This document shows positions 5,470 to 59,907 of a stretch of 64,000 bases of DNA, piece after piece (position 1 is the stretch's first letter; every line of letters begins with the position of its first letter). The notes beneath the pieces are model-generated. The model ran no database searches, had not been told where the DNA came from, and was given only the letters and a program-made list of their open reading frames with translations. The DNA comes from an uncultured Candidatus Saccharibacteria bacterium (lineage in GTDB: Bacteria > Patescibacteriota > Minisyncoccia > Ryanbacterales > 2-02-FULL-48-12), in the NCBI GenBank assembly GCA_964479945.1, contig CAYZNS010000004.1, positions 13,715 through 77,714 of the forward strand, written 5' to 3'. The translations under genes were made by a program, and so were the position numbers.

Positions 5470-7371
5470 ATGTCAAAGATACTAGGAATTGACCTCGGTA
5501 CCACCAACTCCGCCATGGCGGTGATGCAGGCGGGGCAGCCGAAAATAATAGAAAACAAAGAAGGGAACCGCACCACGCCGTCCATGGTAGCGGTCTCTAA
5601 AACGGCCGAGCGCCTGGCCGGTTTGCTTGCCAAGCGTCAGGCAATTACGAATCCTAAAAACACCATTTATTCCGCGAAGCGTCTGATCGGGCGCACGTTC
5701 ACGGACGCGCAGCTGGATAAGGACAAAGAAACCCTGCCATATGACATCCGCGCGTCGGCAAGCGGCGGCGTTGAGATTCGCATGGCGGATAAATGGTATA
5801 GGCCGGAGGAGATCTCTGCTATGGTTCTCCAGAAACTCAAGCATGATGCCGAAGAATACTTGGGCGAGAAAATAACGGAAGCGATTATAACCGTTCCTGC
5901 GTATTTTGACGACGATCAGCGGCAGGCAACCAAAAATGCGGGTGAGATAGCGGGCCTTACCGTGCGCCGAATTATCAACGAGCCCACGGCGGCCGCGCTT
6001 GCGTACGGGTTTGATAAAAAGAAGAACGAAAAGATAGTAGTGTATGATTTCGGCGGCGGCACGTTTGACGTATCAGTGCTGGAAATCGGCGACAATACCA
6101 TTGAGGTGCGCGCCACAGGCGGAGATACGCATTTGGGAGGGGATGATTTTGATCAGAAAATTATTGATCACCTTGTCGTGGAATTCAAGAAGGAATCCGG
6201 CATAGATATCTCAAAGGACGGCCTTGCCCTTCAGCGTCTTAAAGAAGCGGCGGAGAAAGCAAAACATGAATTATCTACTACGGTAGAGACGGAAATAAAT
6301 ATTCCCTTTATAACTTCCGGCGCGGACGGGCCGCAGCATCTCCTAATCAAGCTCGCGCGCGCCAAGTTGGAATCCCTGGTGAGTGAATATGTCTTACGCT
6401 CCGTGGAAATAACCAGGCAGGTAGTGCGCGATGCAAAATTTGAACTACACGCGATAGACGAAGTCATTTTGGTGGGCGGACAAACGCGCATGCCAGCCAT
6501 TGTAAATGCGGTGAAGGAACTGTTCGGCAAAGAGCCGAACAAGTCCATCAACCCGGATGAAGTGGTGGCGGTTGGAGCAGCTATTCAGGGCGGCATTATG
6601 CAGGGAGACGTAAAGGATGTTCTCCTTCTGGATGTAACACCGCTTTCGTTTGGCATTGAAACATTAGGGGGGGTATTTACGCGCCTTATAGAAAAAAATA
6701 CCACCATTCCCACGGCCAAAAGCCAGATATTTTCCACCGCCGCGGACAATCAAACGTCCGTGGAAGTGCACGTGCTGCAAGGGGAGCGGGAATTCGCGCG
6801 GGACAACAAAAGCTTGGGCCGGTTTATATTGGACGGTATCCCGCCTGCCCCCCGCGGCATGCCGCAAGTGGAGGTTACGTTTGACATTGATGCGAACGGC
6901 ATCCTCAATGTGAAAGCAAAAGACAAAGCGTCCGGCAAAGAACAATCCATTCGTATTGAAGCGTCTACCGGACTCTCCAAGGAAGAGATAGAGCGCATGA
7001 AGCAGGATGCGGCCGCGCATGCCGAGGAAGACAAGAAACGCAAAGAGACTGTGGAAATGAAAAATACGGCAGACGCGCTTATCTACACGGCGGAGAAGTC
7101 TCTCCGCGACGCGGGCGACAAAGCGCCGGAAGATATCCGCAAAGACGTGGAGACGAAAATAGAGGATCTCAAAAAAGCGAAGGAAGGGGATGACGCGCAG
7201 CAGATTCAAAACGTGTCCAGCGCGCTGCAAGCATCGCTTTCAAAGATAGGCGAGTATCTCTACAAGCAGCAGCCGCAAGAGAACAAAGGCACGCAATCAA
7301 CTGATGATAAGAAAGACAATGTGAAAGATGCGGAGTTCAAGGATGTAGAAGATAAGAATAAAGAATCATGA
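5470..7371 (+). CDS. dnaK: molecular chaperone DnaK (Hsp70)
   Basis: [18 protein letters not shown], full Hsp70 architecture, 633 aa. Confidence 0.95.
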
Positions 7372-7569
7372 ATCATGAATCATGAATTATGAAATATGGA
7401 AAACGTAAAACTCTAAACTCTAAGTCCTAAACAAGTCTCAAGTTCAAAGTGCAAAGTTCAAAAAGAGGTTTTTATGCTTTATGTTTTTATCTTCGAGTTT
7501 GTTTAGAGTTTAGGGTTTGGAACTTAGAATTTTTGTCCTTGATTCATAATTCTTACTTCATAATTCAAA
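7372..7569. repeat. heptamer-based imperfect palindromic spacer (catgaat / aactcta motifs and their reverse complements)
   Basis: tandem atcatga x3 at left edge mirrored by ttcataa repeats at right edge; nested inverted repeats seen directly. Confidence 0.6.
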
Positions 7570-8544
7570 ATGCTTTATACTGAAAGCATTATGACGAATG
7601 TTAAATCTTTCATTGTCGGCATAATCATAGTTGCGTCTTCTGTCCCTTTTTGGTTTTTCTATCGCGAGGCAATCGGCCTCAATGCAGGTAACGGCCTTGC
7701 CGTGTCTTACGCGCTGATATTGCTGACAATTAATCTTGCCGCAACGGCGCTTTTGCTTCTGTTCGCGGAACGCGCGCGCATACTTATTGTGGTGGCCGTG
7801 CTGAACGCGTTTTCGTTTCTTTATTTTTTTGGCGCTTCCGTAATTACGGGCATAGGTGCGTTTTTTCTTTTGGCGGCCGTGTGGTACGCGTACGAGCGGG
7901 TGCATGCGGAGATTGAAAGCCGTATTACATTTAACGTGTCCATTCTGTTGCGGCAGGGCATGCCTTCCGTTCTTACGGCGCTTGCCATAGCGCTTGCATT
8001 GGGATATTTTGTGCAAACCGCGAAAACGCCCGAGCGCATTACCATACGCGATATTATTCCCCGCGCGGTGTTTGAGGCCGTATTTGAGAATACCGTTCCC
8101 TATATTGGCACTGCGGCGCTTGAGGGTTTTAGCGCCAATCTCACGGTTGACGAATACATAGAGCGGCAGCTTACAAAAGGCGGGCTGGATATAACACAGC
8201 TCCCCGCCGGCGAGCGGGAACAAGTTTTTGCCCGCGCCCGGGAAGAGCTGTTTCGGCAGGTTTCCGACACGCTGCCGGAAACTTCCATTCAGGGTGATAC
8301 GCGCATCGGCGACGTATTGTATGACATTATTATTGCGCGAAGCGAGCAGGTACTCGCACCCTATCAGCAGTTTATCCCTTTTGCGTTTGCATTCGGACTC
8401 TTTTTATTTCTTCGTACGGTTGCGCTGCCATATGGGTGGGCAATTTCATGGATTATCCGCGGCGCCATAGCGCTGCTTCGGCGCGGAGGAGTGGTGGTGC
8501 GAACGGAGGAACAGGCTGTGAAAGAACGCATGTCTTGGGCATGA
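7570..8544 (+). CDS. hypothetical polytopic membrane protein
   Basis: 324-aa ORF with multiple hydrophobic helices; no recognisable family. Confidence 0.45.
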   Translation: MLYTESIMTNVKSFIVGIIIVASSVPFWFFYREAIGLNAGNGLAVSYALILLTINLAATALLLLFAERARILIVVAVLNAFSFLYFFGASVITGIGAFFLLAAVWYAYERVHAEIESRITFNVSILLRQGMPSVLTALAIALALGYFVQTAKTPERITIRDIIPRAVFEAVFENTVPYIGTAALEGFSANLTVDEYIERQLTKGGLDITQLPAGEREQVFARAREELFRQVSDTLPETSIQGDTRIGDVLYDIIIARSEQVLAPYQQFIPFAFAFGLFLFLRTVALPYGWAISWIIRGAIALLRRGGVVVRTEEQAVKERMSWA

Positions 8545-11073: not shown

Positions 11074-12678
11074 ATGACCCGCACGGAACTTCTACAAAAA
11101 TTAAAAGCAAAACGCAAAGAACTTGCTGACCGGGAAGGTATTGAGCTGTTTATGGTATGTACCAACAAGGCGCTGGAGGAGACGGTAAAAGCAATGCCGG
11201 CGACGCTTGCGGATCTGGCGTTGGTAAAAGGTTGGGGGAAGACAAAGATTGCGAAGTACGGCACAGATGTATTGGATATCATCGTGCATGGCAATTTGGA
11301 AGATCAATCGCCAAGTTCACTTGGACGTCCGGTTTCCAAGTCAGAGGGGGCGGTGTTTTCTGTTGCAGAATTTTTGGATGCCGTCAATATTACACTCGCG
11401 CGGTTGGGGGCCGTGCGCGTGCAGGGAGAGGTCAGCGAGCTTAAAACGAGAGGGGCCGCCGTGTATTTTACGCTCAAAGACACTGAAGGAGAGGCAAGCG
11501 TGAAGTGTGTATTGTGGGCCTGGAAATTTGAACGCGAGTACAGCTATTTGGAAGACGGCATGGAAATAGTGGTGGACGCGCTGCCGGAAGTATATGCAAA
11601 ATTTGGAACGTTTGACCTCAAGGTGGAGCGGGTGGAGCCAGTTGGCGAAGGGGCGCTGCAAAAAGCGTTTGAAGCATTGAAGAAAAAATTGGAAGCAAAA
11701 GGATATTTTAATGCTGCTCGCAAACGCCCTATTCCCGCCATAGTGCGGCGTATCGGGGTTATTACATCCGAGAAAGGGGAAGCCATAAACGATTTTCTAA
11801 AAAACATCGGGGCATACGGATTTGAAATTGTCCTCACTGATGTGCGTGTGGAAGGAGCACAGGCGGAAGATACGATAGTATCCGCATTCCATCGCATGAA
11901 TAAGGAACGCCACGACCTAGACGTAATCTGCCTTATTCGTGGCGGCGGCGGGCTCGAGAATTTAAAAGCATTTAATACGGAGCGTGTTGCGGAAGCGGTG
12001 GCAACATCGCGCATCCCCGTGATGACTGGCATCGGCCATGAGCGCGATGTAACCATTGCGAGCTTGTCGTCCGATGCGGATTTTTCCACGCCTACGAAGG
12101 TGGCGGACGCAATACGAAGAGGCAGAGAGGACATGTTGCGCGCTATAGAAAGGCAGGCGCAAGATGCGTCTCAATGTGTAAAAGAATTGTTGCGGGAAGC
12201 CCTGCAAGCAGCCGCACTTCTGGCAGGCGAGCTGCAGCGCACGCCGGATAGGGTACTGGAACGCGCGCGCGTGCGTATAAGCGGCGCGGCTCATAGAATG
12301 GAGTCCGCATTAGGGCGCGTTTTTGCGGCCTTTAACCTTCTGGAGCGCAGGATCCGGGATGGCATGCATAGATACACCCGCATGCTTCAAGAAGCGCAGC
12401 ACCTCATATCCCGCGAGGCCGCGGGTATGCGCGAATACATGCAGGGCGCGCTGCAAACTATGGGGAAACGTATTGCAGTGGCTTCAGCCGCTCTTGTGCC
12501 GTTGAATCCAGCCGCCCCGTTACAGCGCGGGTATAGTATTGTGTATGGACCGGATGGGAAGGTGGTAAAAGATTCTGAATGTGTTACTATTGGTGAATAT
12601 GTTACCGTACGGCTCTATAAGGGAAAGATCAAATCAAAAGTTGAAGGCATAGATTTAAATGAAAACATTAAAGCATGA
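11074..12678 (+). CDS. xseA: exodeoxyribonuclease VII large subunit with N-terminal HRDC domain
   Basis: N-terminal ~70 aa match HRDC consensus (ELLQKLKAKRKELADREGIELFMVCTNKALEE…LALVKGWGKTKIAKYG); OB fold plus IRGGGGLENLKAFN…GIGHERD XseA core; xseB follows. Confidence 0.8.
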   Translation: MTRTELLQKLKAKRKELADREGIELFMVCTNKALEETVKAMPATLADLALVKGWGKTKIAKYGTDVLDIIVHGNLEDQSPSSLGRPVSKSEGAVFSVAEFLDAVNITLARLGAVRVQGEVSELKTRGAAVYFTLKDTEGEASVKCVLWAWKFEREYSYLEDGMEIVVDALPEVYAKFGTFDLKVERVEPVGEGALQKAFEALKKKLEAKGYFNAARKRPIPAIVRRIGVITSEKGEAINDFLKNIGAYGFEIVLTDVRVEGAQAEDTIVSAFHRMNKERHDLDVICLIRGGGGLENLKAFNTERVAEAVATSRIPVMTGIGHERDVTIASLSSDADFSTPTKVADAIRRGREDMLRAIERQAQDASQCVKELLREALQAAALLAGELQRTPDRVLERARVRISGAAHRMESALGRVFAAFNLLERRIRDGMHRYTRMLQEAQHLISREAAGMREYMQGALQTMGKRIAVASAALVPLNPAAPLQRGYSIVYGPDGKVVKDSECVTIGEYVTVRLYKGKIKSKVEGIDLNENIKA

Positions 12679-12741
12679 AAACATAAAAACAAAACAACTT
12701 GTTTTTATGCTTTTGTGTTTTCATGTTTTAATGAATTACAT

Positions 12742-20446: not shown

Positions 20447-20738
20447 CACAATTTACCATGAATCAAGAATTATGAATTATGGGATTTGAAAGTAATAAGA
20501 GCCTATCTCAAAAATAATGAGGAGCTGAAATCCTTAAAATTCGTTGCGAAAATTGCAAAAAATGAGGAGGCATAGCGAGCTATGGCGACGAGTTTTTTGC
20601 AATTTGCAGCCGAATTTTAAAGATTTCAGCCCTCAAGTGCCATAATTTGTTATATTTGCACGGTTATTTTTGAGATAGGCTCAAGTTAATGCTTCTTTTT
20701 TCCTTAATTCATAATTCAAGATTCATAATTCATATTTC
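20447..20738. repeat. 292-nt nested near-perfect palindrome forming the rpoB-rpoC spacer
   Basis: outer catgaatcaagaattatgaatt / aattcataattcaagattcataattcat; perfect 19-bp GAGCCTATCTCAAAAATAA/TTATTTTTGAGATAGGCTC; further nested arms. Confidence 0.7.
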
Positions 20739-23700
20739 ATGAACACTTTAGAAAAAGACAACATAATAGTAGATCAGAATTTTGACGCAATTGCCTTGCG
20801 GCTGGCTTCGCCCGCGCGCATGTTGGAGTGGTCGCATGGGGAAGTCTTGAAACCGGAAACCATCAACTACCGCACCCAGCGGCCGGAGCGCGACGGTTTG
20901 TTTTGCGAGCGCATATTCGGGCCAGAGAAGGATTACGAGTGTTACTGCGGAAAATACCGCCGCATCCGTTTTAAAGGCATCATCTGCGACAAATGCGGCG
21001 TTGAAGTTACGCGCGCGGTGGTGCGAAGAGAACGCATGGGGCATATTGCGCTGGCGTCTCCCGTTTCGCACATTTGGTTCTTACGCGGCGTGCCTTCCAA
21101 AATGAGCTTGCTCTTGGGCGTCTCCGTCAGCGATCTGGAGAAAGTAATTTATTTCGCGGGCTATATTGTACAGCATGTGGACGAGGATCGGCGCCGGGAG
21201 GTTTTGTCAGAGATTGAGCGCGAGTATAAATTGAAATTGAAAGCGGGCGTGCGGGACAAAGACACGCTGAAAGAGGCGGCTGACCAGGCAAAGTCGGAAG
21301 TAAAAAGCATCACGCGCATGCAGGTGCTCTCGGAAGTGGAATATCACCACATCAGCATGAAATACGCCAATCTCTTCCGCGCGGGCATAGGTGCCGAAGC
21401 GTTGTACGATATTTGCACGGGTGTTGATTTTACCGTGTTGGAATCAAGCTTGAATGAAGAAGCGGAGCGCTCTTCAAATCCGGTGCAGAAGCGAAAAATA
21501 TTAAAACGCTTGCAGCTTGTCCGGGCCATGCAGACTACCGGCATACGTCCCGAATGGATGTTTCTTACCATTATTCCAGTTATTCCGCCGGCGCTGCGGC
21601 CCATGGTTCCCCTTGATGGCGGGCGGCACGCAACCAGCGATGTCAACGATTTATACCGGAGAGTAATCAACCGGAACAACCGCTTGAAACGCCTCTATGA
21701 ACTCAAAGCGCCTGAAGTAATATGCCGCAATGAAAAGCGCATGCTGCAGGAAGCGGTGGACGCGTTGATAGACAACTCTATCCGGCGGGGACAGGCAGTG
21801 GTAACGTCGCAGGCGCAAAAGCGCCCGCTGCGTTCTCTCGCCGACATGCTCAAAGGCAAGCAAGGGCGGTTCCGGCAAAATTTGCTGGGCAAGCGCGTGG
21901 ATTACTCCGGGCGTTCCGTTATTGTGGTAGGGCCTGACTTGAAACTGCATCAGTGCGGCTTGCCGAAGCATATGGCATTAGAGTTGTTTCGTCCATTCGT
22001 AATCCGAAAAATCATTGAGCGCGGGCTTGCGTTTAACATCCGCGGCGCCGGACGCCTTATTGAAGACGCGACCCCCGACGTATGGGCGATTTTGGAAGAG
22101 GTGGTGGATGGCAAATACGTGCTCTTAAATCGCGCGCCCACGCTGCATCGCTTGGGAATCCAGGCATTCCAGCCGAAACTTATTGAAGGCCGCGCTATAC
22201 AGCTGCATCCGCTCTCGTGCGAAGCGTTTAATGCCGATTTCGACGGCGACCAGATGGCGGTGCACGTGCCGCTTACGAAAGAAGCGCAGTATGAGGCGCG
22301 TGAAATTATGGCGGCGGAAAAAAATTTGCTCAAACCCGGCACGGGCGATGCCATCGCGCGGCCGCAGCAAGATATCGTGCTTGGCTGCTACTGGCTGACG
22401 CAAGTAAAGGATGGCGCGCAAGGGGAGGGCAAAATATTTTCCGACCGCCAAGAAGCGTTGATGGCGCTGGAACACGGCGCGGTGAGTCTGCAGGCGAAGA
22501 TTAAAGTGCGGTTAACCGAGAATGAATTGGAGCTTACGGAAACAACCCCCGGTCGCATTATTTTCAATAACGCCCTGCCGGATGGATTTGAGTTTGTTAA
22601 TAACGGGCTCAATAAAAAATTTCTCACGGCGCTTACGAGTAAAATCGTACGCCAGTACGGCGCGGAGGGATCGGCCCCCATTCTGGACAGCATAAAAGAT
22701 ATTGGTTTCGAGTATGCCACGCGTTCGGGTATAAGCTGGGGCATCAGCGATCTGCCGGAGTTGACCCGCAAGAAAGAGATTATTGATCAAGCGCTCGCGG
22801 ATGCGCAAGTGGTTCGCGATCAGTTTGAGCGCGGACTGCTTACGGACACAGAGCGCTATGCCAAGGTGGTGGAAATTTGGAATACGAAAGTAAAGCCTCA
22901 AATAGACAAAGAGGTGCGGGAATCTTTGGATAAGGCAGGCCCTATTTTCTCCATGATCGATTCCGCCGCGCGCGGCTCTTGGGTACAGGTAAACCAAATG
23001 GCGGGCATGAAAGGCATGGTCGTCAATCCATCCGGCCGGATTATTGAGCTTCCCATTGTTTCCAGTTATAAAGAAGGCCTCAATGTGCTTGAATATTTCA
23101 TATCTACGCACGGCGCGCGTAAAGGCACGGCGGATACGGCATTAAAAACCGCGGCGGCCGGCTATTTGACGCGGCGTTTGGTTGATGTGGCCCAGGATGT
23201 GGTGGTAACGGAGGAAGATTGCAATGATGATAACGGCCTCATTGCGTACCGGAAGGATGTGGAAGAGGTAAATAAAAGTTTCGCTTCGCGCATATTCGGG
23301 CGCACGCTGCTGGCCGATGCGCGGCATCCGGAAACAAAGAAGGCGCTTGCGCGCGCCGGCGAAATAATTACCATTGACATGGCGGAACTTATTGATAAGT
23401 CCGGGCTTTCTACGGTGCATCTGCGCTCTCCCGTAACGTGCAAGACGCGCCGCGGCGTGTGCCAGGCATGTTATGGCTATGATTTGGGGACAAATTCGCA
23501 AGTGCGTATCGGCGAGGCGGTTGGCATTGTAGCGGCCCAGGCGATCGGCGAGCCCGGCACCCAGCTTACCATGCGCACATTCCATATCGGCGGCGTGGCG
23601 GGCGGCGGCGATATCACGCTTGGCTTGCCCCGCGTGGAAGAAATATTTGAAATACGCACGCCGAAGACGAAGGCGATTATTTCCGAGGTAAACGGAAAGG

Positions 23701-24540: not shown

Positions 24541-24674
24541 GAATAATGGGACTGTTGCCGAATGGCACTTTTAGCGATTTTTGCCCGAAAATATCCTTAT
24601 TTTTCAACAGGCAAATTTAAAAAAACGGCATTCGGCAACAGTCCCATAATACAAGAGCTCATAAACATTTGCGA

Positions 24675-24708: not shown

Positions 24709-24857
24709 GCTATCCGCGCCTAGGCGGATCCGCCTTGGGCGGAAAATTCGTACGTTTTTATTCCCAATTTATCCAAATGAAAACCGCCCGACCAATGCCA
24801 GACGGTTTAATGGCAAGAACTCGCAAATCAGAGCAAGTGCCAGGATTGTGATCAGTT

Positions 24858-25034
24858 AGAAAGTGTTTACAAACCCTTCGTAGCGAAGCTTTCCTGCTTT
24901 GAGCTGATACAAGGAAGGCAAGTAAAACGGCATAAGGCGTAGCAACGCTACGGTGAAATGCTGTTTTACGCAGCCTGACGCCGTAGCAGCCAAAGCAGGA
25001 AAGCTGCAGTAGAAGGGGTTTGTAAACACTTTCT
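24858..25034. repeat. 177-nt rod-like hairpin element with 5' GCCAGGATTGTGA box
   Basis: perfect 19-bp outer stem AGAAAGTGTTTACAAACCC/GGGTTTGTAAACACTTTCT, 14-bp second stem, internal GCTACGG/CCGTAGC stem. Confidence 0.6.
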
Positions 25035-25076
25035 TAGTGACTTACAACTTACAACTTTTTTTGCTATACTATACTC

Positions 25077-27352: not shown

Positions 27353-27733
27353 ATGATTTTAACTTCCGACTATCTTAAAGAATCACGCAGGACGCTCCTT
27401 AAAAAACGGGTGCGGCTGTTCGTTGCAATAAGTACTATTTTCTTGGTGGGCGCCTATTTTGCTTATCAGACGAGCGACGCCATGCGTCCGCCGGAACTTG
27501 AGATAGCGCAGCCCGCCGACGGCGCCACGCTTGACGGGCCGGTAGTTGTGGTGGAAGGTTTTGTCACGCCCGGCATCCGATTGACAGTGTATGGCGTAGA
27601 AGCGTATAGTGGGAACGATGGACGGTTCTACGTAGAGCTGCTGTTACCGGCGGGGTTGCATGTTATAGGTATCAGCGCGGAAAACAGGTTTGGTAAAACA
27701 AGTTCCCTGGAGCGCAGAATAGTGGTGAAATAA
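27353..27733 (+). CDS. hypothetical membrane-anchored protein with beta-rich extracytoplasmic domain
   Basis: single N-terminal TM helix, 126 aa. Confidence 0.4.
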   Translation: MILTSDYLKESRRTLLKKRVRLFVAISTIFLVGAYFAYQTSDAMRPPELEIAQPADGATLDGPVVVVEGFVTPGIRLTVYGVEAYSGNDGRFYVELLLPAGLHVIGISAENRFGKTSSLERRIVVK

Positions 27734-27855
27734 CTTTGAATAACGAAAACCGCAGGGAATGTGACTAACCGAGCTCTGCACACAAGCGAAGCGAAGTGTG
27801 AATAGCTCGGTTTGGCACATTCCAGATGTCAAATAATGCGTTTCGTTATTCAAAG
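27734..27855. repeat. long palindromic element, copy A of the GTGACTARCCGAGCT family
   Basis: outer inverted repeat CTTTGAATAACGAAA/TTTCGTTATTCAAAG; core boxes GTGACTAACCGAGCTC and AGCTCGGTTTGGCAC; inner hairpin CACAC…GTGTG. Confidence 0.75.
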
Positions 27856-27871
27856 TAAATAAGCAATACGT

Positions 27872-29124: not shown

Positions 29125-29217
29125 CTCGTAACTCGTAATCCGTAACTCGTAATCCGTACCAGGAAGATTAATAAGATAAAATTCCTTTGTACGAGTTACG
29201 GTTTACGGATTACGAAT
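29125..29217. repeat. hairpin of CTCGTAA/TTACGAG heptamer repeats between rpsR and ssb
   Basis: ctcgtaactcgtaatccgtaactcgtaatccgta … tacgagttacggtttacggattacga inverted arms. Confidence 0.7.
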
Positions 29218-30252: not shown

Positions 30253-30338
30253 GCAGGTATTTGCCTCGCAGGGCTTGACAAATATTTTATAACATGCTAT
30301 TCTGTCGGCAGAATTAAGAACAAGTGTCTCACCAAAGG

Positions 30339-30482
30339 GGTAAGAGTTCACAAACTCGAGTAAGCGCCAGGATTGTGACTAGCCGAGCTTTACACACACG
30401 CCAAGGCGGTGTGGATAGCTCGGCTTGGCACATCCGGAAATGGAGAAAAGCAATTATTGCTCGAGTTTGTGAGCTGTTACCC
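30339..30482. repeat. long palindromic element, copy B (GCCAGGATTGTGACTAGCCGAGCTT … AGCTCGGCTTGGCACATCC)
   Basis: outer inverted repeat GGTAAGAGTTCACAAACTCGAG/CTCGAGTTTGTGAGCTGTTACC; inner hairpin CACACACGCC…GGCGGTGTGG. Confidence 0.75.
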
Positions 30483-30491
30483 AAAGAGAAC

Positions 30492-30520
30492 TTGACAAGA
30501 ATAGTATAACATGCTATAAT
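30492..30520 (+). promoter_or_regulatory. consensus promoter TTGACA-17-TATAAT
   Basis: perfect hexamers with 17-nt spacer; ~300-nt leader to the next ORF. Confidence 0.55.
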
Positions 30521-30824
30521 ATATCCATAAAAAGAGGATGTACTTCCTAACCGCTTTTCTTTTGTGGAAAGAATGATGGAGGAGAGAGGGCAAATAGGAT
30601 CGGCACTAAATATACATAAGAGGCCGTTACTCCTTACAATCGCCTTCATCGTTCTCTCTATGAAATGAGAGGAGAGATTGGAATAGTTCTTTGTTGAAAT
30701 AACATAAGCGTTCAAACGTGGAACGTAAAGCGTAAAGCGTTAAAACGAATAGCCGGAGAAGTTCTTTGAATTAAATAGTGCTGTTGCTCATATAGATTTC
30801 TGGCCGCTTTTGAGGAGATAGAAA

Positions 30825-31256
30825 ATGTCTTTTCAAACGCGGCTGGAAACTATATTAACCAGCCCGTCAGCTTACCGAGCTACAGAAGCTGAAACGCCAG
30901 AGGAGGCACCAATGGCACGAATAGATTGCACGAAGACAAATTGCGAAACTTTTCGGCAGTTGATTGAAAAACTCAATACCGAAGGGTTCGATATAGATCA
31001 CTTTCATGCGGTTGACCTTATTGAGGTCGATGCTGACTATAGTGGAGGAGAAAAGGTGGTCTATGTCCTCGAGGGCGATATCTTGAAAAAAGGGATAGAG
31101 ATGGTCGTTCATCTCAATTTCGTCTTCGATAAAAACGGCGTCGTAGAAGATGCCGCATGGTCTTCGGGAAATGAGTTGGACGAGAGGATTCACCCTCTCG
31201 ATCAAGATCCGAGAGGCTGGTTCAAGCTTGTTGCCGACGAGTGGCACGAACGATAG
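30825..31256 (+). CDS. hypothetical acidic protein (143 aa)
   Basis: SD GAGGAG; no recognisable family; C3-rich codon usage unlike core genes. Confidence 0.45.
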   Translation: MSFQTRLETILTSPSAYRATEAETPEEAPMARIDCTKTNCETFRQLIEKLNTEGFDIDHFHAVDLIEVDADYSGGEKVVYVLEGDILKKGIEMVVHLNFVFDKNGVVEDAAWSSGNELDERIHPLDQDPRGWFKLVADEWHER

Positions 31257-31266
31257 GAGGGGTGTC

Positions 31267-31623
31267 ATGAAAGAGTTAGATAAGTTTTTTTCGGGTCTCC
31301 AGTCTTGGTACCGGACCCCCATTCGCACCATCTGCCCGTCGTCCCCCTGCCTGTATAAGGGTTGTATTCTCGAGGTTTTGCTCTCAGACCTCGAGATGGA
31401 TTGCCCTGACACAGGGCATCAGGGCTTCCTCTGCTCGGCAGAGGATGGGACGATGGTAGTCTTCGACGAAGCAGGCGGATTGGCTCGGGTCGCCGTTTTC
31501 TGTGGAAATGTGGAAACGGCGAAAAGTCTTTGCCCGGAGGAGCTCCAATGGAGCTTCTACTGGGCAGAAATGAGGGGAGGTGAAATTCACCTCCTGCCGA
31601 GCAAGAACCCCTTCCTGGAGTAA
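31267..31623 (+). CDS. hypothetical Cys-containing protein (118 aa)
   Basis: SD AGGAGGGG 7 nt upstream of ATG; immediately follows the preceding ORF. Confidence 0.45.
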   Translation: MKELDKFFSGLQSWYRTPIRTICPSSPCLYKGCILEVLLSDLEMDCPDTGHQGFLCSAEDGTMVVFDEAGGLARVAVFCGNVETAKSLCPEELQWSFYWAEMRGGEIHLLPSKNPFLE

Positions 31624-31907
31624 CCCCCGTTACAGAAACTCCTCAAAAAATTAATCCGGCCATGCACTGGCTGGCGGCAAGGAAAAGCACTTTTCCTGCG
31701 GGCATTGGTAGGTTCCGAAGCATTTCGGAAGTCCGTTCTCAACGACATCGAGAGAACAAAAACCTACTCTTCTACAAAGCTTTCAAAATGTTTTGAAGGC
31801 TTTGAGAGGAAAGTTCTTCAAAATTACATTATCTCCACTTGTTGGGATGTGTAAGGCGATAGTAGTCGCTTTATATATCTCAATAAGAAAGGAGGTGATA
31901 CTCTACC

Positions 31908-32123
31908 ATGGGCCGGTGGGTCCGATATTTTATCGGCACCCCCGAGCGGTTCATGAGGACGGTGGTTGTCTTCGGACTGATCATTGTCATCCTGAACCCG
32001 GGCTTGCTCGCGTCAGCTGCGAACCAGCTGATTGCCGAGTTAAGCCCGCTCCTCGGGCCCGCGTTGACGATCTTGATCGTCCTCGCGGGAATCCGGATGA
32101 TCCTTGGGGGTCGCCGGAAGTAA
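31908..32123 (+). CDS. hypothetical small membrane protein (71 aa, 2 TM)
   Basis: SD AAGGAGGTGA; hydrophobic; followed by GTCCAC-ttcg-GGTGGAC hairpin. Confidence 0.5.
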   Translation: MGRWVRYFIGTPERFMRTVVVFGLIIVILNPGLLASAANQLIAELSPLLGPALTILIVLAGIRMILGGRRK

Positions 32124-32328
32124 CCGTTGGACTCGGGGACGGCCTGTCCACTTCGGGTGGACGGAGGCGCGCGGATATGCGTCTTGGCAACGGAAGAGGG
32201 TTTCTGGAATTGGCCAGAACACTTCAAAAATATCAGAGGGCGACAGAGGTCCCTCCGCACAAAAACCTCTCCACAACCGAGTTTTCAAAAAAAGTTTGAA
32301 GACTCAAAGTGGAAGTTCTTTGAAACAA

Positions 32329-32449
32329 CCCAGCACTAAATTTTTGGTTTAAATAGTGTGTGACTAACCGAGCTCTATCCCGGTGCAACCGCGGATGGAC
32401 AGCTCGGTTTGGCACTATACAAATATCGAACCAAAAATTTAGTGCTGGG
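32329..32449. repeat. long palindromic element, copy C
   Basis: outer inverted repeat CCCAGCACTAAATTTTTGGTT/AACCAAAAATTTAGTGCTGGG; core GTGACTAACCGAGCTC…AGCTCGGTTTGGCAC. Confidence 0.75.
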
Positions 32450-32536
32450 CAAAAAATCAGTGATTATGTTTGCGCGGTTCATAAAAGAGCGCAATGGCTA
32501 GCATGCCAAGCATGAATAAAAAAATAATTGCTTCAA
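32438..32536 (-). CDS. possible tiny hydrophobic peptide (32 aa)
   Basis: MPVSLFEAIIFLFMLGMLAIALFYEPRKHNH; speculative, no SD. Confidence 0.2.
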
Positions 32537-32557
32537 AAAGTGACACGGGCATAGTTT

Positions 32558-32650
32558 ATTCTTTATGACGCATGGCCCATATAAAAATAATGGTTCCCAT
32601 AGCTCCGATGGCAAGATATGCAAGCATGAGTTTTTGGTTTATGTCCATGG
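32558..32650 (-). CDS. possible tiny hydrophobic peptide (30 aa)
   Basis: MDINQKLMLAYLAIGAMGTIIFIWAMRHKE; tandem with the previous one; speculative. Confidence 0.2.
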
Positions 32651-32769
32651 AATGTTTAAAATTTAACCAGCAGCGGAGATTCGGAAAAACCTCTCCCGCG
32701 AGGAGTATGTGCGGGGTCAGCTGGAGGAGTGGGAGAGAAGAAAAAAGAATTTAAACTGAGGAGGAAAAT

Positions 32770-33027
32770 ATGCCGTTTGAGTTTCCCTACTGCCAGACCC
32801 CAGACGGGGATGATTATGTCTGCCATTGCGGGGTGGCGCTGGTGAAAATCGGCGAGGATGACATGGAGTGGGAAGAAGATGATGATACCCCTCGATCGCA
32901 CATCCGATTCTTCGAGTGCACCGCATGCAAAGAATATTGCGCGGACTGCACAGGAGAATGGGTGCAAGAGGGGATATCAGGACTCGTCCCACTTAACCCG
33001 GCAGACGACAACATCCACGCCAGCTAG
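32770..33027 (+). CDS. hypothetical acidic Cys-rich small protein (Zn-ribbon-like)
   Basis: SD GAGGAGG; CHCG…CTACKEYCADC. Confidence 0.45.
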   Translation: MPFEFPYCQTPDGDDYVCHCGVALVKIGEDDMEWEEDDDTPRSHIRFFECTACKEYCADCTGEWVQEGISGLVPLNPADDNIHAS

Positions 33028-33267
33028 AGGCGGCCTGTCTAGCGCCCTTGCCATGTAAAATAAATCACGCCCCGCAACGGGATGCGTGATGTGCTCCGAC
33101 ATGGCGGAGACGGATCTCTCCACAAAGAGAGGCATCCGTGAGTGGGGACCCTGCCGAAGCAATAAGGCACGGGCGGGACCACAGCGCATGTATGGGAGGG
33201 TTACACACAAAACTCTCCCTACCTTTCTTGAGTACATGTTCTATAATGAAGATGTACTCAAATCAGG

Positions 33268-33573
33268 TTCACCCACACACCTTTTAGGAACATAGCAATG
33301 CATTATTTTTACATCCTTAAAAGTCAGATTGATAAGAAACTATACCGAGGATTTACCGGTAATCTTCGCAGACGATTTGACGAACATCAAAATGGCCGTG
33401 CTCTTTCAACGAAAAATCGTAGACCTTTTAGTTTGGTATATTATGAAGCATATAGATCAAAAACAGATGCGACCCGTCGTGAACAGCAGATGAAATTGAA
33501 TGCGAAGGCTTGGAGTCAGCTTAAGCGGCGTATTGCAACGAGTATAGAAGATACCTAAAAGGTGTGTGGGTAA
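33268..33573. repeat. 17-bp inverted repeats bracketing the GIY-YIG gene
   Basis: TTCACCCACACACCTTTTA (33268-86) vs TAAAAGGTGTGTGGGTAA (33556-73, overlapping the stop codon). Confidence 0.6.
33298..33558 (+). CDS. GIY-YIG nuclease-family small protein
   Basis: YFYILKS…KLYRGFTGNLRRRFDEHQNG…FSLVYYE…RRE matches the GIY-YIG core. Confidence 0.8.
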   Translation: MHYFYILKSQIDKKLYRGFTGNLRRRFDEHQNGRALSTKNRRPFSLVYYEAYRSKTDATRREQQMKLNAKAWSQLKRRIATSIEDT

Positions 33574-33759
33574 ACCGCCACAAGGCTGTTGAGTCAGTAC
33601 AACGGAATCGGGTTAAAGCGACGTTGTGAGATTTTTTAAAGATCTCTCTCCTCTAAACAATGTTTCTTGACCCGTATAATTTCTGTTTGCTGGCTCACAG
33701 CCTTGTGGCGGTACATAAAAAACCGCCTCGGATAATCGAGGGGGCACGTATCTCCATAC

Positions 33760-46037: not shown

Positions 46038-46722
46038 GCCAGGATTGTGACTAGCCGGGCTTCGCACACGCCCTGCAAGGGCGCTGTGAGTAGCCAGGCT
46101 TGGCACACTCCCCCACCAAAATTTTTGGTGGGGGAGCACATCCGGAAAAAGGTGGACAAAAAATTAAAAGTATGCTAAAAACTATGCAGACAGCAAACTG
46201 CATAGTTTTTTTGAAAGGGGGATTTGAAATGTCTGATCAGGAAAAAATACATGTTGCGTTATGCAATATTGGCAACATACATCTCACTAGAAAGATGGGC
46301 GAAATTATAGTATTTTGCTCCTTTAATAACCATATCAATTTCTATTTTAATGAGTCGGGAGTGCTTGAGGAGATTGAACTTTATAATTCACCTTCGTATC
46401 ATAGAAATATCCTCCAAGCCAGACATGAGTGGACAGGAACGCTTATCGGCGTCCGGTTGGAAGGAGATGAGTTATATCTCTATCCAAATAACGCTGGACT
46501 CGTGAAAGTGAATCTGAGAACTGGTTTCTTATACACAAAGTAACATTGATTGGGAGAGGGTGATATTCTCTCCTTTTTTATTGACATTTTTGATGTGTGC
46601 GTATATCATATTGATATTAATCTATATGTAATTTATTTTTGAAGTTTCTGTATCAATGCATTCTGGATGTGCTCCCCAACCAAAATTTTTGGTGGGGGAG
46701 TGTACCAAGCCGGGCTACTCGC
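46038..46722. mobile_element. palindromic element copy D split by a ~520-nt insertion with 58-nt terminal inverted repeats and a cargo ORF
   Basis: left TIR 46086-46143 and right TIR 46665-46722 each contain the 29-nt palindrome CTCCCCCACCAAAATTTTTGGTGGGGGAG; interior has its own terminator, SD, low-GC ORF, second terminator and a TTGACA-17-TATCAT promoter. Confidence 0.5.
46229..46543 (+). CDS. hypothetical protein (104 aa), cargo of the inserted element
   Basis: SD AAGGGGGA; AT-rich codon usage; no family recognised; the track ORF begins at an upstream ATG (46100) inside the repeat. Confidence 0.45.
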   Translation: MSDQEKIHVALCNIGNIHLTRKMGEIIVFCSFNNHINFYFNESGVLEEIELYNSPSYHRNILQARHEWTGTLIGVRLEGDELYLYPNNAGLVKVNLRTGFLYTK

Positions 46723-46749
46723 ATCGCCATTTAAATTAGCCACATCACT

Positions 46750-47031
46750 ATGCAAAATACTAAAAAAACATGTGCCGGCTGTTTCCGCGTATTGGCGGAT
46801 GCCACGCGTATGGGGATTATTAAGCATTTGCAGGAAGGGGGCGCTCAAAATGTAAGCGCGCTCACGAAGCTTCTGCGCGTCTCGCAGCCGACGGTGTCGC
46901 ACCATCTGCACCGCCTCGCGGATGCCGGGTATGTAACGCGCACGCGCTTAGGAAAGCAAATACGGTATGAGTTTCGGAAAGATTATCCGTGCCGGGGATG
47001 CGGGGTGTTTTCAGCTCCTATACGGAGCTGA
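46750..47031 (+). CDS. ArsR/SmtB-family transcriptional regulator
   Basis: HTH ADATRMGIIKHLQEG…VSALTKLLRVSQPTVSHHLHRLADAGYV. Confidence 0.8.
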   Translation: MQNTKKTCAGCFRVLADATRMGIIKHLQEGGAQNVSALTKLLRVSQPTVSHHLHRLADAGYVTRTRLGKQIRYEFRKDYPCRGCGVFSAPIRS

Positions 47032-47067
47032 CAAGTTAAAAGTTAAAAGTGCAAAATGCAAAGTTAT

Positions 47068-47090
47068 GGTATCCCGCTTTCAGCGGGATG
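47068..47090 (+). terminator. GC hairpin terminator (GGTATCCCGC-tttcag-GCGGGATG) inside an A/T heptamer palindrome
   Basis: stem-loop flanked by gttaaaagtgcaaaatgcaaag / ttttgcactttgcactttg inverted arms. Confidence 0.5.
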
Positions 47091-47165
47091 ATTATATAAA
47101 TCCGTGAGCGAAGCGAACACCAAAATTTTGCACTTTGCACTTTGAATTTTGAACTAATATAGCAT

Positions 47166-48649: not shown

Positions 48650-48687
48650 AAAATGCAAAATGTAAAAATCAAAATGTAAAATTTTTG

Positions 48688-48709
48688 TATTCCGGCGAAG
48701 CCGGAATCA
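48688..48709 (+). terminator. GC hairpin terminator (TTCCGGC-gaa-GCCGGAA) inside an aaatg/cattt heptamer palindrome
   Basis: seen directly; between ferredoxin and SOD genes. Confidence 0.5.
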
Positions 48710-48778
48710 TTTTAGCATTTTACATTGTCATTTTGCATTTTGATTTTTACATTTTAAATTATAAACTAACAAGAAAAT

Positions 48779-50624: not shown

Positions 50625-50660
50625 AAAATTAAAAGTTAAAAATTAAAAGTGCAAAGTGTT

Positions 50661-50684
50661 GGTATTCCGGCTGCGCCGGAATGA
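50661..50684 (+). terminator. GC hairpin terminator (TTCCGGC-tgc-GCCGGAA)
   Basis: same family as 48688 with compensatory loop change. Confidence 0.5.
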
Positions 50685-50806
50685 ATGTACTGTGAATTAC
50701 GAAATGCATTATTTGACATCTGGAATGTGTCATTTCGTAATTCACAGAATGTATATAATCCGTGAGCGAAGCGAACACCAAAATTTTGAATTTTGCACTT
50801 TAAATT

Positions 50807-53500
50807 TTGAATTTATATATGACTCCATTTCATAATTTTACGGTAAAAGCCCAGGAAGCGCTCAAGCGGGCCCACGAGCTCGCCATTGAGCGCGGGCACA
50901 ATCAGATAGACGCGCTCCATCTTTTAAGCGCGCTGTTGCTGCAGGATGACGGCGTTGTCATTTCTCTTTTGGATAAGCTGGAAGTGGATACGCAGCTGAT
51001 GCTGGATTCTATTCTTGATAAGCTCAACGGCGGCACGCGCGGCGACCTTTTGACGCCCTCGCCGCAGATCTACCTGACGCAGGAATTAGCGCGGGTTTTG
51101 GAAGAATCGCATAAAGCTGCGGCCCAGCTCAACGACGAATTTATCTCAACGGAACATTTATTTATAGCGCTTTTGGACGTGCCGTCCCGTGCGGCCGATA
51201 TGCTTTCCAAATTCCGCATAGATAAAGAAGTTGTGTTACGGATCCTTCACGAAATCCGCGGATCGCAGACCGTTACCGACATGGAGCCGGAGACAAAATA
51301 CCAATCGCTGGAAAAATACGCGCGCAATTTGACGCGCCTTGCCAAAGAAGAAAAGCTGGACCCGGTCATCGGCCGGGAAGAAGAAGTGCGCCGCGTGATG
51401 CAGATTCTCTCGCGCCGCACCAAAAATAATCCCGTGCTCATCGGCGAGCCCGGCGTGGGGAAGACGGCTATTGTGGAGGGCTTGGCCCAGCGCATCGTAA
51501 TGGGCGACGTGCCAGAAAGCTTAAAAGAGAGGGAACTCATCGCGCTGGATCTTGGCGCGTTGGTTGCGGGTACTAAGTATCGGGGCGAATTTGAAGAGCG
51601 CTTGAAAGCGGTGCTTCGGGAAATTGACCGCGCGGCGGGGAAAATACTCTTGTTCATAGATGAGCTTCATACGCTGGTTGGCGCGGGTGCGGCCGAGGGC
51701 GCCATTGACGCCTCTAACATGTTGAAGCCCGCGCTTGCCCGCGGGGAATTGCATGCCATAGGAGCTACCACGCTAAAGGAATATCAAAAATATATTGAAC
51801 GCGATATGGCGTTGGCGCGGCGATTCCAGCCCGTGTATGTGGAAGAGCCATCAATAGATGACGCTATCGCCATCCTCCGCGGCTTAAAGCAGAAATACGA
51901 GCTTCATCACGGCGTGCGCATCACCGATAGCGCAATTGTAGGGGCGGTACAGCTCTCAAGCCGATACATTGCAGACCGGTTTCTGCCGGACAAAGCGGTT
52001 GATTTGATAGATGAAGCCGCCTCCTCTCTGCGGTTGGATATTGATTCCATGCCGAAAGATCTTGACCGGGCGCGCCGCGAGATTATGCGCCTGGAGATTG
52101 AGAAAGAAGCGCTCAAGCGCGAGGCGGAGCCGTCGGCTAAGCAGAAAGTCAAGAAAATTCAAAAACAAATTGAGGAGCTCAAGGAAAAAACGGGGGGACT
52201 GGAGCTCAAATGGAAAAATGAAAAGGAGGCGATCGTCGGCATCCGCGGAATGAAAAAGGAACTCGACGCGATGCGCCAGGAATCCGATGCGGCGGAACGC
52301 GCGGGGAATTTGGCGAAAGTTGCCGAAATCCGCTACGGCCGTATTCCCGCGTTGGAAAAAAATATCAGCGATGAAGAGGCGCGCCTGGGCAAACTGCAAT
52401 CCGCGCGCCATATATTGAAAGAAAGCGTTGCGGAAGAAGACATCGCCGAGGTAATTTCCCGATGGACGGGGGTACCCGTGATGCGCATGCTGGAGGAGGA
52501 GGCAAAGAAATTGCTCACCATGGAGGACGTGCTTCAAAAACGCGTGGTGGGGCAGGAAGAAGCAATCTCCAAAGTAGCGCAGGCAATCCGCCGTTCGCGC
52601 GCGGGCGTAGGAGAAGAGGACCGGCCGGTTGGCTCGTTTATGTTTTTGGGCCCCACGGGTGTCGGGAAAACTGAGCTTGCTCGCGCCTTGGCCGAGTTTC
52701 TTTTCAACGATGAAAAATCGCTTATCCGCGTGGATATGTCTGAATATATGGAGCGTCACACGGTGTCTAAGTTTATCGGATCTCCTCCCGGATACGTGGG
52801 GCATGAAGAAGGCGGGCAGCTGACTGAGCTTATCCGCCACCGGCCGTATTCCGTGGTGCTGTTTGACGAAATTGAAAAAGCGCATCCAGAGGTGTTTAAC
52901 ATCATGCTGCAAGTGCTTGACAATGGCCGGCTTACGGACGCGAAAGGTCGGCATGTTAATTTCAAAAATTCTGTCATTATCATGACGTCCAATATCGGCT
53001 CCGAGTACGTGCGCGAGATGGAACGCTTGGGATTTGCGGCCGGCGAGGAAGATACAAAAGAGCGCCGTGAAGATAATTTGAAATCAAAAATCCGGCAGGC
53101 ATTGGAGCGCAACTTCCGCCCCGAGTTCTTAAACCGCCTTGATGAAATTTTGATATTCAACAGCTTATCGCCTGAAATTTTGAGCGAGATAGTGAAAATC
53201 CAGCTTGACCGCGTTGCGCGTCGTCTGGAGCAAAAACAAATTGCGCTTAAAGTAAGCGCGGAAGCTCGCAAGTTCTTAGCGCGCGAAGGCCATGATCCGC
53301 ATTATGGCGCGCGGCCGCTTAAGCGTTATATTCAAAATCACATCCTAAACCCGCTTGCGGAACATATTGTAGGCGGCAAAATCAAGCCGGACAGCGCCAT
53401 ACGTGTGGAAATTCGCGATGGACGGCTGGTACTGGAGACCGATCGCAGGCACGTGAAAAAGGAAGCGCGCAAAGAAGAGCCGGTTGCCGCAGGGGTGTAA
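50807..53500 (+). CDS. clpB: ATP-dependent chaperone ClpB
   Basis: Clp-N, two AAA+ modules with Walker motifs, middle coiled-coil domain, 897 aa. Confidence 0.95.
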
Positions 53501-56122: not shown

Positions 56123-56315
56123 CATAAAATTTGAGCGAGCGAAAATTTTATCTCTACCTACAAATTACTCACACTAATTACAAATTTTAGTTTTAAAATT
56201 TGTTTTCGCTCAAATTTTGAGTAATTAGTAATTAGTATTTTGTAATTAGGACAAGGAAGATTAAGCAGAGAAAGCAAATATTGCTTTATTTCTACGTTTT
56301 GGTATACTATCCACC

Positions 56316-59788: not shown

Positions 59789-59809
59789 TATGGATGCATC
59801 ACGGACTTC

Positions 59810-59887
59810 GCTGAAGGATATGCGCTTCAGGAGGGTTTACTTGGCCAAGCGGCCGTGAGCGCCCTCCTGAAGCGCATATCCTTCAGC
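59810..59887. promoter_or_regulatory. perfect 26-bp inverted repeat with 26-nt spacer between divergent glycosyltransferase genes
   Basis: GCTGAAGGATATGCGCTTCAGGAGGG … CCCTCCTGAAGCGCATATCCTTCAGC; spacer contains CTTGGCCAAG palindrome. Confidence 0.6.
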
Positions 59888-59907
59888 AAATAATTACATA
59901 TGTTACA

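Follow-up and report, generated by a model that had tools for sequence, protein, structure and literature searches.

Nested palindromic repeats with a conserved hairpin core: a probable new family of small mobile elements in Parcubacteria

Introduction

The 64,000-nt stretch of contig CAYZNS010000004.1 analysed here (the window) carries four full copies of a long nested palindrome, designated elements A to D, all of them intergenic. Each contains the box pair GTGACTARCCGRGCT ... AGCYNGGYTTGGCAC, in the same GTGACT-first order and on the + strand. Element A (27734-27855, 122 nt) lies between a 126-aa gene and recA, elements B (30340-30480, 141 nt) and C (32329-32449, 121 nt) follow further downstream, and element D (46038-46143) starts 12 nt 3' of an ahpC-like gene; A, B and C contain no open reading frame (ORF). 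An earlier note on this DNA had placed four such copies at these intergenic positions and all four were recovered there. It had read paired base changes between the copies as a sign of selection on a folded structure, and had offered repetitive extragenic palindromic (REP)-like elements, miniature inverted-repeat transposable elements (MITEs) and a structured regulatory RNA as candidates.

Judged by sequence, the host lineage belongs to the Parcubacteria, within the candidate phyla radiation (CPR), close to Candidatus Ryanbacteria; the RecA encoded in the window is identical to that of one metagenome-assembled genome at NCBI, and its closest relatives are those of the Parcubacteria group members Gr01-1014_29 and Gr01-1014_66 (85-88%) and Candidatus Ryanbacteria (∼82%). 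Genomes of CPR bacteria, or Patescibacteria, are usually described as small, streamlined and poor in mobile DNA. The window points the opposite way: its intergenic space is crowded with nested palindromic families that differ among close relatives and stand even inside conserved operons, for example before recA.

Results and Discussion

Anatomy of the copies in the window

The full elements consist of a core hairpin, delimited by the two boxes, and of outer sequences that surround it. In element A, a 15-nt outer inverted repeat, CTTTGAATAACGAAA/TTTCGTTATTCAAAG, encloses the core (27761-27818; boxes at 27761-27775 and 27804-27818), and the whole is predicted to fold at -54.4 kcal/mol (z -8.3). 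Element B is bounded by terminal inverted repeats of about 21-23 nt (GTAAGAGTTCACAAACTCGAG / CTCGAGTTTGTGAGCTGTTAC, reading GTAAG...CTTAC) and bears its core at the tip (30375-30431; boxes at 30375-30389 and 30417-30431). The outer repeat of element C, CCCAGCACTAAATTTTTGGTT, is 21 nt long and 100% complementary; its core (32360-32415; boxes at 32360-32374 and 32401-32415) is of a type with a short apical stem, and the element folds at -66.9 kcal/mol (z -12.5). Element D has the linkers of the B type, GCCAGGATT ... CACATCC, without the terminal repeats. The outer inverted repeats ascribed to every copy by the earlier note are therefore present in A, B and C, and in D are replaced by a short closing stem, GGATTGTG/CACATCC, broken by an extra hairpin on the + strand (CTCCCCCACCAAAATTTTTGGTGGGGGAG, 46108-46136) nested between this stem and the core (46047-46106; boxes at 46047-46061 and 46092-46106). 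Across the four elements, folding energies range from -54 to -79 kcal/mol, with z-scores of -6 to -12 against shuffles.

A covariance model matched the cores of A, B, C and D at 71.1, 72.4, 53.2 and 64.2 bits, respectively (E-values 1e-12 to 1e-17), and a search of the 64 kb with this model gave no further full copy. The 5' box pattern occurs 11 times in the window against 2.4 expected, a count reached in none of 100 shuffles; this excess, together with the covariance-model scores, excludes chance.

Besides the four full cores, the window contains an inverted copy that is truncated and a remnant of 13 nt. The truncated copy, D' (46665-46728, - strand), corresponds to the 3' half of D (3' box, nested hairpin and closing stem), to which it is ∼92% identical across ∼75 nt. 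It lies ∼520 nt downstream of D; the two bracket a 104-aa ORFan (46229-46543), and a gene for an ArsR/SmtB-family regulator (46750-47031) follows directly. The remnant, GCCAGGATTGTGA (24839-24851, + strand), consists of a left linker of the B/D type and the first 4 nt of a core, and has three exact copies in the window. It had been taken for the beginning of a fifth variant (24839-25034); the 13-mer is indeed shared exactly, but no boxes accompany it, and it lies outside the different palindromic element beside it.

Distribution of the core

Scanning 185,579 representative genomes with a core pattern, in which 22 core positions were fixed and the covarying positions were left free, gave seven loci. 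Four are contigs of Parcubacteria Gr01-1014_29, which holds at least seven cores over these four contigs, and the rest belong to the metagenome-assembled genome (MAG) Bin_46_1 and to a contig labelled Saccharibacteria. The same loose pattern recovered 39 metagenome contigs from groundwater-type samples, for a total of 45 distinct cores from three MAGs and 39 metagenome contigs (L numbers below refer to contigs recovered with this pattern). No orthology was found between the flanks of the window copies and the pattern-derived loci. The contig labelled Saccharibacteria (L006, CAYHZD010000119.1) is 1.7 kb long and encodes a GroEL that shares 89% protein identity with the one in L013, the same element following the gene in both; the contig may be mis-binned, instead of proving that the family occurs in Saccharibacteria.

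The core pattern matched nothing in a scan of viral contigs, element B had no blastn match among plasmid and phage records, and a literature search for the box sequences was likewise without result. At gathering score, Rfam 15 returned just tRNAs, and at E-values up to 10 it added just chance microRNA-like matches to the long hairpins.

A hairpin maintained by compensatory substitutions

The core is an imperfect hairpin of 52-62 nt, GTGACTARCCGAGCT ... AGCTCGGYTTGGCAC, with the consensus (A/T)U-GUGACUAGCCGAGCU-(CUA/UUA/UCG)-CACA-variable hairpin-(U)-UGUG-(GAU/GAC/AGU)-AGCUCGGCUUGGCAC-AU. In its outer stem, GUG-A-C-U-AGCCGAGCU pairs with AGCUCGGCU-U-G-G-CAC, leaving conserved A.G and U.U mismatches. 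Inward of it follow a 3x3 internal loop composed of Y.Y, a single Watson-Crick pair and R.R, then a CACA/UGUG helix and finally an apical stem that is free in sequence and length, exists in 40 distinct versions and usually ends in a GNA triloop.

When column i is paired with column 63-i in the 45 distinct cores, 99.1% of stem cells hold standard pairs, and 11 of the 18 stem pairs have changed on both sides. The covariation score is 0.264, compared with 0.116 for shuffled data; none of 500 shuffles reached the observed value, and none matched the number of cells paired or of pairs and cells with double changes. Registers slid by 1-3 columns leave 19-43% of cells paired. At pair 8-55, 34 cores have G-C and 11 have A-U, without exception, which fixes the register, the two mismatches included. 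This is where an exchange of A-T for G-C had been noticed among the window copies (A and C have A-T, B and D have G-C). The second exchange reported for D is equally real and falls at pair 12-51, G-C in that copy, next to an uncompensated G.A at pair 11-52. The view that selection acts on the fold and not on the sequence is borne out: compensatory substitutions preserve the hairpin, and its mismatches are likewise retained.

The irregularities are nearly as constant as the pairs. At position 4, 42 cores have A.G, two have G.G and one has C-G (R.G in 44/45), and the mismatch at position 6 is Y.Y in 44/45. The internal loop triplet, with its Y.Y, a covarying Watson-Crick pair (U-A in 33, C-G in 12) and R.R (A.G in 33, G.A in 12), forms a mirror-order repeat, which gives the stem a pseudo-two-fold symmetry: both strands of the stem, about 21-22 bp long, read GTG-RNY-AGC-NNN-GCT-YNR-CAC.

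Some cores depart from this plan. In the core at L026 1458-1513, both mismatches have become Watson-Crick pairs (ATGCCAAGCC ... GGCTTGGCAT); its 5' arm looks copied from the 3' arm, possibly by template-switch correction. Two divergent cores, at L038 201-282 and L043 1370-1448, carry the same additional stem-loop, CCTGCCTACCGG(T/AC)AGGCAGG, on the 3' side of the internal loop; its stem, CCTGCC-N-GGCAGG, yields a three-way junction variant. An independent repeat was considered as the source of this mini-hairpin, CCTGCCTACCGGTAGGCAGG, and set aside, as it is present only inside these two cores among the sequences examined.

A kink-turn was also rejected for the core, which, judged from sequence, has a single A.G and no 3-nt bulge.

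Strand preference of the core

The constraint appears to be strand-specific, acting on the GTGACT-first strand. Apical loops are predicted as triloops in 34 of the 45 cores, with 24 GNA against four complementary TNC loops; counted over distinct apical segments, the ratio is 22 to three (p = 1.6e-4). Among one-sided changes, G.U occurs in 12 cells against 2-3 with A.C, and the GTGACT strand gives the more stable fold in 42/45 cores. It is also the G-rich strand and the majority coding strand at 18 of the 23 loci with clear GC skew (p = 0.01).

Whether this strand is read as DNA or as RNA is less clear-cut, and the evidence gives a modest lean towards single-stranded DNA, for two reasons. Fifteen loops are of the form C(GNA)G (for example CCGAAGG, GCGAAGC and GCGTAGC), a motif that makes an extraordinarily stable mini-hairpin in DNA, is considerably less stable as RNA, and is known from single-strand initiation signals (PMC13037366, PMC3201870). 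In addition, about one third of the copies are antisense to both neighbouring genes and are as well conserved as the sense copies (69.0 vs 69.6 bits), which argues against a role purely at the mRNA level. The bias towards the sense orientation and the position just after stop codons favour RNA: 19 of 27 sense copies start within 30 nt of the upstream stop codon. Since spacers are 13-35 nt long, however, any insertion falls near a stop codon. Intrinsic terminators were considered and rejected; a T run (T4 or longer, within 15 nt downstream) follows 6 of 52 copies, and a list of terminator-like hairpins in the window includes none of the four cores.

Insertion and loss

Element B is flanked by an 8-bp target-site duplication, CCAAAGGG on the left (30332-30339) and CCAAAGAG on the right (30481-30488), identical at seven of eight positions. 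Such duplications, with 7-8 of 8 positions matching, flank four of the six complete copies that bear terminal inverted repeats (B-type or composite, with ends GTAAGAG.../GTAACCC...), an outcome with a chance probability of ∼3e-13; the others are CATAATGC / TATAATGC at L003, GGCCATGA / GGCCATGG at L008 and CCCATCAA / CCCATCAA at L038. B and the copies at L004 and L008 resemble one another exactly from GTAAG... to ...(C/G)TAC and show no likeness beyond. No target duplication was found at C.

For element A, relatives provide an empty site. The gene order rpoC-ftsK-small gene-recA-ssb-rpsF-...-ychF is kept in five relatives (82-88% RecA identity), whose spacer between the small gene and recA measures 13-35 nt, against 138 nt in the window, of which A makes up 122. 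Element A is absent from this junction in all five, and no core was detected in their rpoC-ychF loci; among them is the MAG Gr01-1014_29, which has family copies at other sites. A 6-bp repeat, AAATAA, adjoins A on both sides (27728-27733, where it contains the TAA stop of the upstream gene, and 27857-27862); short and AT-rich, it is suggestive only as a possible target duplication. Excising A together with one AAATAA leaves a 9-nt spacer, much like those of the relatives.

Other sites also differ among lineages. A whole A-type element, outer stem and core, stands in L040 amid unrelated genes, and the distance from rpsF to ychF, 26-66 nt in two relatives, is 3.5 kb in the window. This lineage-specific segment (30254-33745) contains B and C, several ORFans without family match and a gene for an 86-aa protein with a GIY-YIG nuclease domain (33298-33558). 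The genes that flank copies of the family are unrelated housekeeping genes (recA, rpsF, ahpC, groEL, sufB, cysS, dnaB and a gatA-like gene), and six sense copies overlap the upstream stop codon, the TGA or TAG being supplied from inside GTGACTAG. The target duplications, the empty site and the differing sites in relatives show that copies insert and are lost.

The setting of the core also varies. It occurs alone, for example 6-11 nt 3' of groEL; as convergent doublets within GTAAC...GTTAC ends (L002, L003, L005, L022 and L038); and at the tip of unrelated outer repeats of the A type (CTTTGAATAACGAAA), B type (GTAAGAGTTCACAAAC) and C type (CCCAGCACTAAATTTTTGGTT) or, at L030 and L033, of an AT-rich hairpin of the ATGAATTATGAA type.

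Persistence at orthologous sites

Some copies have stayed in place: they are kept after groEL (L006 vs L013), after a 356-aa gene (L009 vs L043) and after a 401-aa gene (L028 vs L043), the flanking proteins being ∼89% identical. Between the two copies at groEL, pairs 11-52 (G-C to A-U) and 12-51 (A-U to G-C) have changed on both sides, as have three pairs of the apical stem; one C.A and one G.U also occur, and the mismatches and internal loop are the same. This could reflect compensatory evolution in place or replacement by another member of the family; under either scenario, the fold is preserved across the diversity of the family. The comparison of L009 with L043 between a 130-aa and the 356-aa gene is confounded by an extra gene and was left out, and the composites beside sufB in L002 and L038 have opposite orientations, which leaves their orthology uncertain.

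A probable new family of small mobile palindromic repeats

We consider these elements to be, with a probability of roughly 70%, a new family of small mobile palindromes without coding capacity, which resemble MITEs in their outer portions and REPs in the core. The family is previously undescribed and lies in a phylum with few such elements documented. The terminal inverted repeats, the 8-bp duplications in four of six such copies, the empty site for A and the inverted pairs of cores agree with the REP- or MITE-like candidates named earlier. Of the options then proposed, a structured regulatory RNA has fared worst: both orientations are equally conserved, the neighbours are unrelated housekeeping genes and presence is polymorphic. 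A gene-specific regulatory RNA is not what these elements are.

In the mechanism that we propose, a DDE transposase, possibly of the IS66 family, would move the GTAAG...CTTAC copies in trans, generating the 8-bp duplications. The core would be the binding site of a protein that reads the folded single strand, and the pseudo-two-fold symmetry of the stem suggests that this protein is a dimer. The strand read would more likely be single-stranded DNA of the lagging-strand template than RNA, as with REP hairpins and their REP-associated tyrosine transposases (RAYTs) or those of IS200/IS605 insertion sequences. Where copies are transcribed, highly stable stem-loops would arise downstream of genes or between them, in this window in the recA leader and 3' of ahpC, and any influence on mRNA stability or processing would be a side effect.

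A more specific reading, that the core is more than a passenger or a decayed repeat, namely the recognition site of a dimeric protein, as its strand-specific, pseudo-symmetric form with fixed A.G and U.U mismatches might indicate, is put forward tentatively and in two versions. The core could serve a new hairpin-dependent mobilisation system of CPR bacteria that inserts with a preference for the tips of other palindromes and in this way produces nesting, or it could be a CPR-specific nucleic-acid signal, for RNA processing or for single-stranded-DNA priming, that unrelated MITEs have captured.

Several observations weigh against the proposal of a mobile family. A conserved centre with ends that vary among subfamilies is unusual for MITEs, and the solo cores have neither a target duplication nor a conserved 5' tag such as GTAG. 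Scans of 27 flanking and island ORFs against Pfam, NCBIfam and PHROGs revealed housekeeping proteins, toxin-antitoxin components, ORFans, the small GIY-YIG protein and the ArsR regulator but no transposase or HUH/RAYT protein, which makes the mobilising enzyme hypothetical; nor did the ∼370 kb of loci examined contain a transposase or a long pair of terminal inverted repeats marking a full-length insertion sequence. An element useful to the host would also be expected to stay at orthologous sites, as some copies do after groEL and other genes. As to the fold, invariance at the 22 positions fixed by the search pattern is partly a matter of ascertainment, the counts of covarying cells overstate the number of independent events because the cores are related to one another, and template-switch "correction" within hairpins could make some double changes without selection. 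The erasure of the A.G and U.U mismatches in just one of 45 copies speaks against such switching as the main force. Finally, replication and transcription orientation are confounded on short contigs.

Alternative explanations

The strongest competitor, which we nevertheless find doubtful, is a cis-acting RNA stem-loop that functions for the host in 3' untranslated or intercistronic regions and has been spread by mobile outer parts; it might protect 3' ends, be processed by a dimeric double-stranded-RNA enzyme such as RNase III or signal termination without a U tract. Strong covariation with conserved non-canonical pairs, the excess of G.U over A.C on the GTGACT strand, the usual coincidence of that strand with the local coding strand and the retention of copies after groEL and the 356-aa and 401-aa genes all suit such an RNA, as do the length of the core stem, equal to the 22 bp of a minimal RNase III substrate, and the optional extra stem in the internal loop of two divergent cores, of a kind found in modular RNAs. 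The closeness to stop codons counts for less, being expected anyway with very short spacers. Set against this explanation are the equal conservation of the third of copies that are antisense to both neighbours, the lack of association with any gene family, the absence of A before recA in five relatives, the rarity of T runs, loops that are mostly GNA triloops of the DNA type and not GNRA or UNCG tetraloops, and the lack of an Rfam match. Movement of all copies as single-stranded hairpins by a HUH tyrosine transposase, in the manner of REP/RAYT or IS200/IS605 systems and with the outer repeats incidental, would account for an imperfect hairpin with conserved irregularities, for solo copies without target duplications, for inverted doublets like those of bacterial interspersed mosaic elements (BIMEs) or REPINs, and for the bias to the G-rich strand with its DNA-type triloops. 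It is unlikely in this pure form. B-type copies have clear 8-bp duplications and defined terminal inverted repeats, neither of which, to our knowledge, results from HUH transposition; the GTAG or CGTC tag is missing, the core is longer than a REP, and no RAYT gene was seen among the ORFs scanned, a sample that falls short of whole genomes.

The symmetry of the stem also admits a reading in double-stranded DNA, with each arm a 21-bp GTG-N3-AGC-N3-GCT-N3-CAC operator for a dimeric DNA-binding protein and the hairpin a by-product. The same pseudo-palindrome does occur in both arms, and an ArsR-family regulator gene follows D'. Changes are nevertheless coordinated between the arms, even inside "AGC" (pair 8-55), as a hairpin needs and a duplex operator does not, which disfavours this explanation; copies moreover follow genes as often as they precede them, and the loops are asymmetric between strands. 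We regard paired operators as very improbable. Least credible of all are chance palindromes or decayed copies of one recent local duplication, an idea that the occurrence of four copies within 18 kb on one strand might encourage: the 45 distinct cores are spread over many contigs and at least three MAGs with unrelated flanks, the window copies score E-values of 1e-12 to 1e-17, and the changes among the cores are compensatory and not random mismatches.

Relation to known repeats

The elements answer to the generic description of a MITE, being short and non-coding, with terminal inverted repeats, target duplication and insertion polymorphism, and they fall outside the REP/BIME/REPIN, Correia/ERIC and attC classes, each taken strictly. 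In the definition excerpted from PMC3733652, REPs are imperfect palindromes of 20-40 nt with a GTAG or CGTC end tag. Like REPs, BIMEs and REPINs, the present repeats are a lineage-specific family of multi-copy extragenic imperfect palindromes with conserved irregularities, found mostly just after genes and in both orientations, and their inverted doublets give a longer hairpin. In contrast to them, the core measures 52-62 nt, starts (A/T)T-GTGAC and has no such tag, some copies carry terminal inverted repeats and 8-bp duplications, and the host is a CPR bacterium.

The Correia or NEMIS repeats of Neisseria and the enterobacterial repetitive intergenic consensus (ERIC) sequences of enterobacteria, also known as IRU, are palindromic non-coding insertions of 100-150 bp near or between genes, co-transcribed as long hairpins, present or absent among strains and sometimes forming gene ends, in all of which the present elements resemble them. 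RNA hairpins of the Correia/ERIC type are cut by RNase III or RNase E. Correia elements, however, are bounded by conserved terminal repeats of 26 bp and duplicate a TA, where the present family has an 8-bp duplication and variable ends, and neither they nor ERIC sequences share sequence similarity with it.

Insertion sequences of the IS66 family make target duplications of 8 bp, which together with GTAA ends are their hallmark. Their terminal repeats start GTAAGCG or GTAACCG (PMC12888890), and B-type ends similarly start GTAAG or GTAAC, a match limited to the first 4-5 nt. No IS66 transposase (DDE_Tnp_IS66) was among the ORFs scanned, and no full-length partner came to light, although no search aimed at one was made.

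Integron attC sites recall the core in being imperfect palindromes of similar length that are recognised as a folded single strand, in which some unpaired bases are conserved, the apical structure varies and the protein-binding boxes are pseudo-symmetric. They were rejected as an explanation: there are no RYYYAAC/GTTRRRY boxes, no cassette array and no integrase, and the neighbours are recA, ssb, rpsF and ahpC, with some genes on the opposite strand. Orientation-specific hairpins are likewise found in the phage G4 origin, RSF1010 ssiA, the N4 early promoters and the sso origins of rolling-circle plasmids, single-strand DNA signals with a C(GNA)G loop, for instance CCGAAGG or GCGAAGC, at the tip (PMC13037366). 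Those signals are single-copy on phage or plasmid replicons, whereas the present family consists of dispersed chromosomal repeats with evidence of transposition.

The family could be used as a marker for typing strains and lineages in groundwater metagenomes, and its elements are a likely cause of assembly breaks and of changes in gene ends. The defined hairpin offers a bait with which a protein that binds or mobilises it could be sought in these unculturable organisms. Should the core prove to be read as single-stranded DNA, the hairpin biology of REP and IS200-type elements would extend to the CPR.

Promoter-like repeats and other palindromic elements in the window

Promoter-like TTGACA...TATAAT boxes had been described as often adjoining the copies. 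This applies fully to B, which stands directly between strong ones, and does not generalise, the box nearest upstream of A being ∼150 nt away. The sequences around B are near-identical 30-mers (CTTGACAA-N-TATAACATGCTAT...) in direct repeat at 30274-30303 and 30491-30520, the second of which matches TTGACA-17-TATAAT perfectly. In L003, L005 and L007, too, related elements have TATAAC- or TATAAT-like boxes next to their ends.

The window contains three other palindromic families (20477-20688, 24544-24649 and 24857-25043), with 89-95% identity to the CPR contigs L012, L023 and L040; the likeness is confined to the element, and the flanks are unrelated. The one at 24857-25043, next to the 13-nt remnant, is a separate 185-nt element without a core, with ends AGAAAGTGTTTACAAAC that resemble the terminal repeat of B; it is 95% identical to L040 839-1022. 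Long hairpins with arms of 25-50 nt, which may be terminators, targets for insertion or additional MITEs, occupy most of the longer intergenic regions (2676-2776, 7355-7581, 12659-12733, 20457-20742, 29126-29215, 47034-47155, 48650-48760, 50630-50817, 56126-56218 and 59807-59890). Given so many shared palindromic families and intergenic hairpins, the region appears to have been shaped by palindromic elements that insert, decay and nest in one another. Many of the intergenic hairpins are AT-rich and made of short repeated words (ATGAATTATGAA..., AAAATGCAAAATG..., TCGTAATCCGTAAC...).

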